Assembly (NCBI GenBank): GCA_964409615.1
Contig: CAYPDT010000002.1
Location: forward strand, 65,226-129,225
DNA: 64,000 nt
Direction: 5' to 3'
From: an uncultured Candidatus Saccharibacteria bacterium
GTDB lineage: Bacteria > Patescibacteriota > Saccharimonadia > Saccharimonadales > AWTP1-31
Below are positions 25,250 through 27,845 of this stretch, piece by piece. The notes under the pieces are model-generated. The model made no database searches. It was not told the DNA's origin and saw only the letters and a program-made list of their open reading frames with translations. The position numbers and the translations under genes were made by a program. Position 1 is the stretch's first letter. The number at the start of each line of letters is the position of its first letter.

Positions 25250-25675
25250 CTAACGGCGTTTTTGACGACGTAAGCCAGCGACTTGCAGGCGCACTGCTTG
25301 ACGGTCTACAAGGTTTTGAGCATGTTGCAAAGAGATAGTGTCTTTTGCCTCACGGCGAAGATTCTGGGCATGGTCGAAGGCTTTTTGTGCCTCGGCTTCG
25401 TTGATTTCATCTTCGCGGTCTGCTTCGTCAACCAGTACACGCACTTTATTATCGGTAACTTCAATAACTCCACCGTTAGTGGCAAAGTACTCCAGCTTAG
25501 TGTCGGGGTCGCCTTGTTTACGACGTACACTTATAACGCCGGGGCTAGCGATGCTGACTAGTGGCATGTGGTGAGGGAAGATAGCGATATATCCATCGGC
25601 CGTAGGTAATACAACCTCATATACATCTTCGCCAAACTTAGCCCCGTCAAGTGTTACCAGTTCAAAATTTATCAT
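25250..25675 (-). CDS. atpC: F1 ATP synthase subunit epsilon
   Basis: 141 aa. The N-terminal beta-sandwich sequence (LVTLDGAKFGEDVYEVVLPTADGYIAIFPHHMPL) and C-terminal helices match the expected layout. Last gene of the atp operon. Confidence 0.9.
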   Translation of the reverse strand: MINFELVTLDGAKFGEDVYEVVLPTADGYIAIFPHHMPLVSIASPGVISVRRKQGDPDTKLEYFATNGGVIEVTDNKVRVLVDEADREDEINEAEAQKAFDHAQNLRREAKDTISLQHAQNLVDRQAVRLQVAGLRRQKRR

Positions 25676-25938
25676 CCTAGTACATCCTCGGGCGACACAC
25701 CAAGCAGGGTTGCAAGTTCATGGCCAACACGTATTTCAATCTCTCTGTAGTGCGGGTCATCTGCACGTTCGCCTGTTCTACGACCATTACCCTCAGTAGC
25801 AAAATCGTATCTACTATCGATTAATCGTCGCAGCTCACCGAGCTCTTCGAGATATTGCAGGGAACTGCCATAGCCCCGATTTAGGGCCTCTTGATCATAG
25901 TCTACGTAACACATTTGGTCACCCGCTCCGCCGCCCAT
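25672..25938 (-). CDS. hypothetical 88-aa protein inserted between atpD and atpC
   Basis: Its start shares one nt with the atpD stop (TAATG). Its stop overlaps the atpC start (ATGA). Acidic, no TM segment, no motif recognised. Confidence 0.55.
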   Translation of the reverse strand: MGGGAGDQMCYVDYDQEALNRGYGSSLQYLEELGELRRLIDSRYDFATEGNGRRTGERADDPHYREIEIRVGHELATLLGVSPEDVLG

Positions 25939-27317
25939 TATTTAACCTCGCTAATTTTACCCTTCATATAGAAGGCACTTTCTGGCTTGTCGTCGTGTTT
26001 GCCTTCAAGAATTTCTTTAACGCCTTTAACGGTTTCAGCAAGTGGCACGTATGTACCAGGGATGCCGCTAAAGACTTCTGCTACATGGAATGGCTGGGTA
26101 AGGAAACGCTGCAAGCGACGAGCGCGTGCAACCGTCTGCTTGTCTTCATCGCTCAGTTCTTCCATGCCAAGAATAGCGATAATGTCTTGGAGATCTTTGT
26201 AACGCTGTAGGATGCGTTGCACTTCACGAGCTACATTGTAGTGTTCTTCACCAACGATTTCTGGGTCTAGGATTGTACTACCCGAATCTAGCGGATCGAC
26301 AGCAGGATACAAACCAAGCTCAGTTAATGCACGGTTCAGGGTGATAGTCGAGTCGAGGTGGGCAAAAGTTGTAGCCGGGGCAGGGTCAGTAAGGTCGTCT
26401 GCTGGCACATAGACTGCCTGTACAGAGGTGATTGAGCCTGACTTTGTAGAAGTAATGCGCTCTTGCAAGCCACCCATTTCTTGAGCAAGGTTTGGCTGGT
26501 AACCTACAGCAGATGGTAGGCGACCCAACAAAGCAGATACCTCGGCACCCGCCTGGGTGAAACGGAAAATGTTATCTACGAACAGCAATACGTCTTTACC
26601 CTCGTCACGAAAACCTTCTGCAATGGTTAGGCCAGAAAGACCAACGCGCAAACGAGCACCTGGGGGTTCGTTCATTTGCCCAAAGACAAGGGAAGTCTTG
26701 TCGAGCACACCTGATTCTTCCATCTCATAGTACAGGTCGTTACCTTCACGTGTACGTTCGCCAACACCGGCAAACACTGAAGTACCACCATGCTCTTTGG
26801 CGATGTTGTTGATAAGCTCTGTAATAAGCACAGTTTTACCCACACCCGCACCACCAAACAGGCCTACCTTACCACCTTTAGTCACAGGACAAATAAGGTC
26901 GATGACTTTAATACCAGTTTCTAGAACTTCTGTTACACCAGATTGTTCGCTGAGCTTTGGCGGCTCGCGGTGAATTGGAGCACGCTTCTTAAAATCGTCT
27001 TTTTTGCCATCGATTGGCTGACCAAGCACGTTGAACATACGGCCCATTGTTTCCTTACCGACAGGCACACTAATCGGTGCGCCGGTATCAACAACCTTCA
27101 TACCTCGCTTCAAACCATCGGTAGAACCAAGAGAAATAGTACGGACGCTACCTTCACTCAAGTGCTGAGCAACCTCAAATACTAAGGTCTTGCCATTACT
27201 CTCTACTTCAATTGCGTTATAAATTGCTGGAAGATGACCTTCGGTAAATTCCATATCGACGACCACACCCACGATTTGGGTGATAACGCCGTCTTTTGTT
27301 TTTTCTGCTACTGCCAT
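25938..27317 (-). CDS. atpD: F1 ATP synthase subunit beta
   Basis: Walker [18 protein letters not shown]-like region MEELSDEDK, full-length 459 aa. AGGAG SD in the 9-nt spacer upstream. Confidence 0.97.
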
Positions 27318-27326
27318 AATGCTCCT

Positions 27327-27845
27327 TTATCTTACCTGATTCGCTTCGTCCCATGTAATAGCGGGCTCTAGCTGATTACCATTTCTCTCTAATATTTCGT
27401 CCAGTACCTCGGTGGTAATTTCACGTAATCCTTGTGCCCCTCGTACTTGCCCCAACCATTCAGCTGTTGCATGCCTCCGACTATCGCCGACCTCAAGACC
27501 GGCGTACATACCGGAACCTTCCTCAGCATCAAGCGGTACCGCCTCTGGGACAGGGCTACCTGCTACGATTTCGAGTATGCCGAATGCTACGACCCGCGCA
27601 GTCTCTAAAGTCTCTTTAGTCGTCGAACGTGTTCGTGCAATTGTCTTTTCTATTCTATCGGTGAAGTTATCGAAACGAACGAGCGCTCCTCGCCCTAAAT
27701 TGGCCATGGTCACACCAGCCCTAACACCAGGAGCTCGTCGTGCTGCAGAAATTTGATCATACGGAGATGAATAACCATCTGCCATTTCGATTGCAGCTGC
27801 CGATGCAGAACGAGGTTCTTGCCCCGGGTGCATTATTGCGGTCAT
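27327..27845 (-). CDS. hypothetical 172-aa protein inserted between atpG and atpD
   Basis: Its start overlaps the atpG stop (ATGA at 27842-27845). It ends 9 nt before the atpD ATG. Soluble, Ala/Arg/Glu-rich, no motif recognised. Confidence 0.6.
   Translation of the reverse strand: MTAIMHPGQEPRSASAAAIEMADGYSSPYDQISAARRAPGVRAGVTMANLGRGALVRFDNFTDRIEKTIARTRSTTKETLETARVVAFGILEIVAGSPVPEAVPLDAEEGSGMYAGLEVGDSRRHATAEWLGQVRGAQGLREITTEVLDEILERNGNQLEPAITWDEANQVR

Follow-up and report, generated by a model that had tools for sequence, protein, structure and literature searches.

Orphan genes at two F1 junctions of a Saccharibacteria ATP synthase operon, and the hypervariable small acidic ORFs found at F1 junctions of related lineages

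The ATP synthase operon of an uncultured Candidatus Saccharibacteria bacterium carries two small open reading frames (ORFs) among its F1 genes: orf172, between atpG and atpD, and orf88, between atpD and atpC. The operon lies in a stretch of 64,000 nucleotides (nt), hereafter the window (GenBank assembly GCA_964409615.1, contig CAYPDT010000002.1, positions 65,226 to 129,225 of the forward strand; coordinates below are counted from its first letter). A first-pass annotation of this DNA, made from the letters alone, had singled out the two ORFs. The pattern proved to be clade-wide and to involve three F1 junctions, a point beyond that annotation: of the related lineages, between about a third and a half have small, acidic, soluble, same-strand ORFs at these junctions. 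On comparison with relatives, orf172 and orf88 are local cases of a clade-wide habit, in which hypervariable small acidic ORFs sit between F1 genes. In our best reading, the alpha-gamma, gamma-beta and beta-epsilon junctions are permissive, and the two ORFs occupy two of the three. We give about even credence to the view that orf172 and orf88 are lineage-restricted passenger or accessory genes in these permissive junctions, and not conserved F1 subunits.

The gene order in the window is atpB-E-F-H-A-G-(orf172)-D-(orf88)-C, and every atp gene was confirmed by Pfam. The features of the operon are as follows (aa, amino acids; pI, isoelectric point).

25250..25675, minus strand: atpC, F1 epsilon, 141 aa (Pfam ATP-synt_DE_N, E = 1.1e-19); its ATG overlaps the orf88 stop codon
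25672..25938, minus strand: orf88, orphan protein-coding gene, 88 aa, pI 4.5, filling the atpD-atpC gap; predicted helical hairpin
25938..27317, minus strand: atpD, F1 beta, 459 aa (Pfam ATP-synt_ab, ATP-synt_ab_N and ATP-synt_VA_C)
27322..27326, minus strand: AGGAG, putative Shine-Dalgarno motif for atpD, read from the sequence in the spacer after orf172
27327..27845, minus strand: orf172, orphan protein-coding gene, 172 aa, pI 4.9, filling the atpG-atpD gap
27842..28708, minus strand: atpG, F1 gamma, 288 aa (Pfam ATP-synt, E = 2.8e-88, covering profile positions 3-285 of 285)
27853..27857, minus strand: GGAGG, Shine-Dalgarno-like motif inside the 3' end of atpG, 7 nt upstream of the orf172 ATG
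28711-30243, minus strand: atpA (Pfam ATP-synt_ab)
30253-30648, minus strand: atpH (Pfam OSCP)
30648-31190, minus strand: atpF (Pfam ATP-synt_B)
31262-31528, minus strand: atpE (Pfam ATP-synt_C)
31601-32455, minus strand: atpB (Pfam ATP-synt_A)

Both ORFs fill their gaps. The atpG reading frame ends in AIK followed by TGA, and the orf172 ATG (27845-27843) overlaps this stop codon as ATGA. The orf172 stop codon, TAA (27329-27327), is followed by the 9-nt spacer AGGAGCATT, which carries the AGGAG, and then by the atpD ATG (27317). At the next junction, the atpD stop codon TAA (25940-25938) and the orf88 ATG (25938-25936) have one A in common, reading TAATG, with a GAGG 7 nt upstream of the ATG; the orf88 stop codon TGA (25674-25672) in turn overlaps the atpC ATG (25675-25673) as ATGA. 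The GGAGG and the orf172-type start arrangement were also found in the sister contig L086. The first-pass annotation had given these coordinates, overlaps and the AGGAG spacer correctly to the base; the layout on the operon strand, with its overlaps and Shine-Dalgarno motifs, fits the translational coupling it had proposed. It was also right that extra genes within the atpG-atpD-atpC block are unusual in bacteria generally. In the upstream part of the operon (28711..32455, minus strand) the junctions are tight, with 2 nt between atpA and atpG. The end of atpG (27842-27850) reads ATA AAA TGA, a run of four A residues before the stop codon, and the frame of orf172 is -1 relative to that of atpG; a -1 slip at the atpG stop would join gamma to orf172, and the site is probably an ordinary ATGA overlap.

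Signals for separate expression were sought around the ORFs. A consensus promoter scan returned 12 sites against 11.1 expected, the consensus being that of sigma-70, from which Saccharibacteria promoters may differ. Terminator-like sites were likewise at background (6 against 7.0 expected), and Rfam gave no match to a non-coding RNA or regulatory element at the locus.

Several lines of evidence bear on whether the two ORFs are genes. When the gap sequences were shuffled with preservation of composition (20000 trials per gap), an open frame as long as that observed arose in 10/20000 trials for the atpG-atpD gap and in 558/20000 for the atpD-atpC gap. Both ORFs recur in contigs of at least five samples (Logan, ENA and JGI) and in one NCBI record, with 94-99% identity among cluster members for orf172 and 90-99% for orf88, and complete sister operons were recovered from two loci (L084 and L085). 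The ratio of non-synonymous to synonymous substitution rates (dN/dS), calculated by the Nei-Gojobori method, was 0.10-0.14 for orf172 (for example, 23 synonymous versus 11 non-synonymous changes), with a dS of 0.16-0.25 similar to that of the adjoining genes; for orf88 it was 0.29, with a dS similar to that of the F1 genes. The synonymous excess over the neutral expectation was significant for orf172 (binomial p = 2e-7) and for orf88 (p = 0.014). For comparison, atpA, atpG, atpD and atpC had values of 0.00-0.02, atpH about 0.2 and nearby non-atp genes 0.02-0.13. Together, recurrence and substitution pattern show that orf172 and orf88 are genuine protein-coding genes under purifying selection.

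Their products are hydrophilic, with grand average of hydropathy (GRAVY) values of -0.32 for orf172 and -0.71 for orf88. The former is composed of 14% A, 10% E, 9% G and 9% R, and the latter of 15% G, 11% E, 11% L and 10% R. Neither has a transmembrane segment, the 19-aa Kyte-Doolittle maximum being 1.59 for orf172 and 0.63 for orf88 against a threshold of 1.6; the value for orf172, just under the threshold, comes from one conserved hydrophobic helix at about residues 83-97. The GC content at third codon positions (GC3; 0.38 and 0.40) is like that of the atp genes, and the slightly higher total GC arises at codon position 2 because of the Ala, Gly and Arg content. There is therefore no sign of recent foreign origin, and a foreign source judged by composition was rejected on the native GC3.

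Searches of Pfam, NCBIfam, PHROGs, PADLOC and the PDB, the last with single sequences and profiles, gave no meaningful match for either ORF; the single NCBIfam match, to Cas12b, was below threshold and meaningless. Pfam-A had none at all for orf172, orf88 and the orf88 homologue P0014 described below, and only sub-threshold matches to unrelated families for the homologues P0013 and P0015. No model match placed the ORFs in the F1 inhibitor and accessory families (zeta/DUF1476, epsilon ATP-synt_DE, IF1, Atp11 or Atp12); we take Pfam and NCBIfam to contain models for zeta, epsilon, IF1, Atp11/12 and AtpI. A tblastn search of 50,697 phage and 72,556 plasmid records found no relatives. Searches of the window with tblastx and blastn yielded neither paralogues nor a source sequence, and on the same empty results we rejected the idea that the ORFs arose from a duplicated piece of adjoining atp sequence or from elsewhere in the window.

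Homologues were few and were all found at the matching junction of sister lineages. Among 5.8 billion proteins, a word-indexed search picked up no cluster other than the ORFs' own. An exhaustive HMMER search of 1.84 billion representatives added one orf172 homologue, P0013 (312 aa, E = 1.4e-6), which is 42% identical to orf172 over the C-terminal 74 residues and has the FDxFTxRIE motif in common with it. On its contig, the end of atpG overlaps the start of P0013 as ATGA, and an AGGAG and the atpD start follow its stop codon. A 24-kb metagenome contig (L088), with AtpG 79% and AtpD 90% identical to those of the window, carries the same gene, of 311 aa, between atpG and atpD. For orf88, a profile search of the 5.8 billion proteins found only P0014 (91 aa, 53% identity; L084) and P0015 (80 aa, about 35% identity; L080, with AtpD 86% identical), both between atpD and atpC. 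Blocks of conserved motifs are shared by orf88 with its homologue at 53% identity and by orf172 with P0013. Structure prediction with AlphaFold2 was unusable for orf172 (single sequence; predicted local distance difference test score, pLDDT, 38); for orf88 (five-sequence alignment; pLDDT 60.8) it predicted two main helices in a hairpin, and a Foldseek search of that model against the PDB gave nothing at E below 3. Being intact in independent genomes, with dN/dS <1 and without an outside homologue or known domain, both ORFs have the properties of taxonomically restricted (orphan) genes.

These results bear out several expectations of the first-pass annotation, which had described the products as soluble, Arg/Glu/Ala/Gly-rich and unrecognised, and had proposed dN/dS between relatives as a check: composition and the absent transmembrane segment agree, every database searched was without a match, and the check indicated purifying selection on both. 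Its proposed synteny check succeeded in part, as homologues do stand at the same junctions in one or two sister lineages; none was found beyond these, and the ORFs of other lineages are mostly unrelated. Its comparison with zeta, a conserved accessory subunit, found no support in the form given, as neither protein is conserved beyond its own species and those one or two sister lineages, and unrelated genes occupy the same junctions elsewhere.

How sharply the junctions diverge was seen in comparisons of closely related loci. The AtpD of the window is 72-91% identical to that of 80 Saccharibacteria loci; lineages with 85-91% identical AtpD have junction ORFs of other lengths without detectable similarity to orf172 or orf88, and many relatives have no ORF at these junctions. 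Between the window and L004, L024 and L086, DNA similarity ends at the atpG stop codon and returns at about the Shine-Dalgarno motif of atpD; the L004 ORFs (136 and 63 aa) retain only the first residues, MTAIMQPG (agreeing as MTAIMxPG) and MGGG. On the dN/dS measure, both ORFs change at roughly 10-50 times the rate of the F1 subunits, which makes orthologues unrecognisable at about 80-85% AtpG identity. Gradual divergence would then be enough to erase the similarity, and occasional replacement may have contributed as an alternative.

One sister operon points to exchange by recombination. In L084, a sliding-window comparison revealed a tract centred on orf88, at about 6900-7500 in L084 (window about 25470-26064). 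Nucleotide identity to the window falls from 91-99% outside the tract to 85-86% across the final ~130 nt of atpD and the opening ~200 nt of atpC, and to 50-73% within orf88; the orf88 protein is therefore only 53% identical where the conserved flanks hold about 85% nucleotide identity. The tract comes from a more divergent lineage, so that junction genes are exchanged by homologous recombination with its anchor in conserved F1 genes.

To survey the junctions across the clade, we assembled two sets of loci, 80 from a search of AtpD against one genome per GTDB species and 80 from a search of AtpG against JGI metagenomes. The labels of the first set are nearly all Saccharibacteria or Saccharimonadales, with a few mis-binned or other Patescibacteria. 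Loci with at least 95% atpG nucleotide identity were collapsed, which left 142 lineages; about 4 kb around atpD or atpG were covered, and an insert was defined as at least 120 nt. The lineages with an insert were distributed as follows.

atpF-atpH junction: 0/13
atpH-atpA junction: 2/88
atpA-atpG junction: 40/136
atpG-atpD junction: 63/125
atpD-atpC junction: 36/110

The F1 junctions were thus occupied in 139/371 cases and the stalk junctions in 2/101 (Fisher p = 4e-15). Occupancy varies among lineages, including close relatives, and is correlated across the three junctions (atpG-atpD with atpD-atpC, odds ratio 9.3), a correlation confounded by shared phylogeny. The lengths of AtpH, AtpG, AtpD, AtpC and AtpA showed no meaningful difference between loci with no insert and those with two or more; the idea that the ORFs are split-off or compensating pieces of F1 subunits was rejected, as subunit length does not depend on the presence of inserts.

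The inserts resemble one another in layout and character more than in sequence. Among the GTDB loci, 55/74 gaps are filled to at least 90% by the longest open frame of the operon strand, compared with 8/74 by that of the reverse strand; some gaps are only partly coding. With gene starts in relatives extrapolated from tblastn alignments, the start of the first ORF overlaps the stop codon before it, at an offset of -4 or -1, in 50/68 cases at atpG-atpD and in 23/41 at atpD-atpC, and the last ORF in a gap mostly overlaps or abuts the next start. The median pI of the junction ORFs is 4.63, with 76% below 5.5, compared with a median of 8.15 for small ORFs elsewhere in the window. Only 3/179 contain a transmembrane-like segment. 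The GC content of the gaps is on average 4.5 points below that of atpD across species. Where it could be measured, the dN/dS of other insert families was 0.17-0.43.

By sequence, the 179 junction ORFs fell into 142 phmmer clusters, 112 of them singletons, and the 23S_rRNA_IVP cluster was the only one at more than one kind of junction. Weak homology (E between 1e-4 and 1e-2) linked 14 same-junction pairs and 0 cross-junction pairs. A Pfam domain was found in about 7/78 tested ORFs: 23S_rRNA_IVP (three), His_Phos_1, NUDIX, HXXEE and Nuc_deoxyrib_tr. We know of no F1 link for NUDIX, histidine-phosphatase, deoxyribosyltransferase-like, HXXEE or 23S-rRNA-IVP genes. A hidden superfamily uniting the junction ORFs was also sought; iterative hidden Markov models seeded with orf172, orf88 and two further families stayed within a few lineages.

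Particular residents deserve mention. At atpG-atpD, one group of loci (L051, L054, L057 and L058-L063, with L061 labelled Nanosynbacter) has recognisable enzymes or membrane proteins and not orphans, namely NUDIX, histidine phosphatase (one copy of which seems degenerate), nucleoside 2-deoxyribosyltransferase-like and HXXEE proteins, and sister genomes of this group have a 2-nt gap there. Genes for 23S_rRNA_IVP/bAvd-like four-helix-bundle proteins lie at atpD-atpC in L009, L012 and L056 and at atpA-atpG in L101. A diverged family of 64-101 aa stands directly upstream of atpD in about seven lineages (L006, L008, L013, L074, L114, L115/L116 and L121); it has an AYxxGY-like C-terminal motif and in several cases follows a second, weakly conserved ORF. 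Such a family is a sign that some junction residents are old. This family was first seen by eye, and orf172, tried as a member, did not join it.

The layout of the inserts allows an explanation in which the peptides matter little. Inserts might be translated spacers, whose open frame and coupling carry ribosomes over the inserted DNA and prevent polarity on atpD and atpC, while the peptide itself has no function. Such spacers would account for the gap-filling, same-strand, overlap-coupled arrangement of more than 100 inserts mostly unrelated in sequence, for their extreme turnover, for gaps that are coding only in part and for the low AlphaFold2 confidence. They would not account for dN/dS, which is far under 1 for orf172 and also under 1 for orf88 and for other insert families, or for the motif blocks kept in both ORFs; the consistent acidic bias, too, suggests selection on the protein, at least for harmlessness. 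We regard functionless spacers as quite improbable.

Another possibility is that selfish or mobile DNA, such as a toxin-antitoxin pair, a homing-type cassette or a phage moron, has settled in a highly expressed operon; insertion of this kind had been one suggestion of the first-pass annotation. We found no flanking, terminal or tandem repeats and no target-site duplication, with only short matches at chance level, and neither ORF has a recombinase, endonuclease or toxin domain. Together with the empty searches for paralogues in the window, for phage and plasmid relatives and for PADLOC or PHROG matches, the native GC3 and, the IVP genes aside, the lack of any family at more than one junction, these results speak against mobility of that sort. 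What agrees with it is the variable presence among relatives, the IVP/bAvd-like genes at two different junctions in relatives, and the L084 tract, by which recombination is seen to move alleles between lineages. Genes of the IVP/bAvd type occur at scattered sites in many genomes. On balance, selfish insertion seems to us highly improbable.

A third explanation would make orf172 and orf88 accessory proteins of F1 that evolve fast and are specific to their lineage: assembly helpers, inhibitors or stoichiometry modulators, co-translated with gamma, beta and epsilon and binding nascent F1. Restriction of inserts to F1 junctions, correlated occupancy (with phylogeny as a confounder), families that keep their position with homologues at the matching junction only, purifying selection, a common small, acidic and soluble character and the hairpin predicted for orf88 are all consistent with such a role. 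The difficulty lies in the supposed partner: F1 surfaces are highly conserved (AtpD 72-91%), whereas these proteins diverge past recognition between sister species. Moreover, presence and absence differ among close relatives, the core subunits keep their lengths, the junctions also hold clearly unrelated enzymes, and no Pfam or NCBIfam model shows similarity. A dedicated F1 accessory role is, in our view, rather unlikely.

We favour the passenger or accessory reading because the ORFs are unconserved against an extremely conserved F1, because presence and absence vary among close relatives, because core subunit lengths are unchanged and because clearly unrelated enzymes share the junctions. Several observations weigh against it. 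Inserts cluster at three F1 junctions and are nearly absent at atpF-atpH and atpH-atpA, a distribution that a model of purely tolerated passengers leaves unexplained and that hints at an F1 link. Families stay at their own junction, with 23S_rRNA_IVP as the exception, and the confinement of homology to within junctions suggests that some residents are old and stably retained. The acidic character common to the inserts might, furthermore, reflect one function. A broader formulation, which we find possible but somewhat doubtful, is that the ORFs belong to a hitherto undescribed group, found throughout the clade, of small, acidic and hypervariable proteins that have their genes exactly between those for alpha, gamma, beta and epsilon and are co-translated with them. 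They would be either fast-evolving modulators of F1 assembly, stoichiometry or activity in these episymbiotic bacteria or the output of a 'gene nursery' at the three junctions. In the latter variant, sequence inserted into a heavily translated operon could be forced to be open and coupled, and could mature into new proteins under selection.

Under the passenger or accessory reading, orf172 and orf88 would be transcribed on the atp mRNA, consistent with promoter and terminator signals no higher than background. They would be translated by termination-reinitiation coupling through the ATGA and TAATG overlaps and the Shine-Dalgarno motif within the end of the upstream gene, and ribosomes would then continue onto atpD and atpC. 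Untranslated RNA within an operon leads to Rho-dependent polarity, and translational coupling is well established. An untranslated or antisense insert ahead of the essential atpD or atpC would thus be polar, through Rho-dependent polarity and lost coupling. A filter of this kind, set by the operon and survived only by open, co-directional and coupled inserts, would be the best explanation of their same-strand, gap-filling layout with overlaps. The products, as passengers or accessories whose role is specific to the lineage, would be dispensable; they would make use of the operon's expression and would not be stoichiometric F1 subunits.

Other contents of the window were recorded in passing. 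The product of atpH (30253-30648, minus strand) is short: its 131 aa match the 172-position OSCP profile at positions 55-171 alone and leave the N-terminal part of the model without a counterpart, and a length of ~131 aa is also found in relatives with or without junction ORFs. A 121-aa orphan ORF convergent with atpC (24870-25235, plus strand) has no Pfam or NCBIfam match and is kept in L084 and L085 with a dN/dS of 0.07-0.13; a 202-aa orphan ORF on the other flank of the operon (32932-33540, plus strand) likewise has no match in either database. A 339-aa protein (23745-24764, minus strand) gave a sub-threshold match to the CDCA (cadmium carbonic anhydrase) repeat (E = 2e-6; 28.0 bits, the cut-off being 29.2), which would be unusual in Saccharibacteria if real. 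The region 41332-63058 looks like an integrated element or defence island. Its genes encode a serine recombinase (41332-42606), a terminase-like protein (44833-46362), a ParB-N6/N4 methylase (46741-48063), an MmeI-family type IIL restriction-modification enzyme (48926-51745), a DEAD/ResIII helicase, a T5orf172 protein, a 1581-aa protein without a Pfam domain (54947-59692), a DUF2779 protein and FtsK/SpoIIIE.

Conserved gene order is exemplified in textbooks by the atp operon, whose expression is tuned to subunit stoichiometry. Interruption of its F1 block at three specific junctions by hypervariable small proteins under selection, in up to half of the surveyed Saccharibacteria lineages, is unexpected for so conserved an operon, and nothing on intercalated ORFs in the atp operons of Saccharibacteria or the Candidate Phyla Radiation came to light in our full-text literature searches. 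The pattern raises the question whether F1 is regulated or assembled by lineage-specific partners in these episymbionts, and the question whether, in a highly expressed operon, constraints of polarity and coupling steer inserted DNA towards becoming new protein-coding genes. Whichever answer holds would bear on the origin and persistence of orphan genes in minimal genomes, and the survey flags about 140 uncharacterised small-protein clusters with an exact genomic address.

Among known systems, orphan genes and passenger or moron-like ORFs wedged between conserved genes come nearest in architecture, and the F1 inhibitors and operon-encoded Fo helpers come nearest in hypothesised role. The proteins that regulate F1 are the first comparison. 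Zeta of alphaproteobacterial F1 (Paracoccus), the C-terminal domain of epsilon, IF1 and cyanobacterial AtpTheta are small, soluble and helical, and orf172 and orf88 resemble them in being small soluble proteins that could bind F1, the helical hairpin of orf88 being a prediction. The two differ from these inhibitors in having no Pfam, NCBIfam or fold match (the last for the orf88 model only) and in not being conserved beyond sister lineages. Known F1 inhibitors are conserved across their own clades, and none of zeta, IF1 and AtpTheta is known to have its gene between atpG, atpD and atpC. IF1 and AtpTheta are basic, whereas orf172 and orf88 are acidic.

Extra non-subunit ORFs within atp operons are also known from atpI/uncI, atpZ and the atpQ/atpR genes of N-type ATPase operons, which are co-expressed with the subunits as orf172 and orf88 would be. 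AtpI/UncI, AtpZ and AtpQ/AtpR are small hydrophobic membrane proteins of conserved families, and their genes flank the Fo genes. The ORFs described here, by contrast, are soluble, acidic, hypervariable and placed between F1 genes; having no transmembrane helices and no Pfam match, they were rejected as Fo accessory proteins of these types. Phage morons and passenger genes offer a likeness of another kind, that of an extra, variably present gene which sits between conserved neighbours and gains from the expression of an operon. Morons typically have their own promoter and terminator and homologues elsewhere. For orf172 and orf88, such signals are at background, expression appears to depend on coupling, and no homologues were found outside the junctions.

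Taxonomically restricted (orphan) genes, and the small ORFans that fill plastic regions between conserved core genes in T4-like phages, offer a further comparison. As here, small ORFs without homologues beyond a narrow lineage are wedged between highly conserved, syntenic genes on their own strand; overlap coupling is frequent, and turnover between relatives is rapid. The ORFs described here differ in lying in a cellular genome, within the F1 genes of an ATP synthase operon, where the phenomenon is confined to three specific junctions and the residents are families bound to their positions rather than shuffled cargo.

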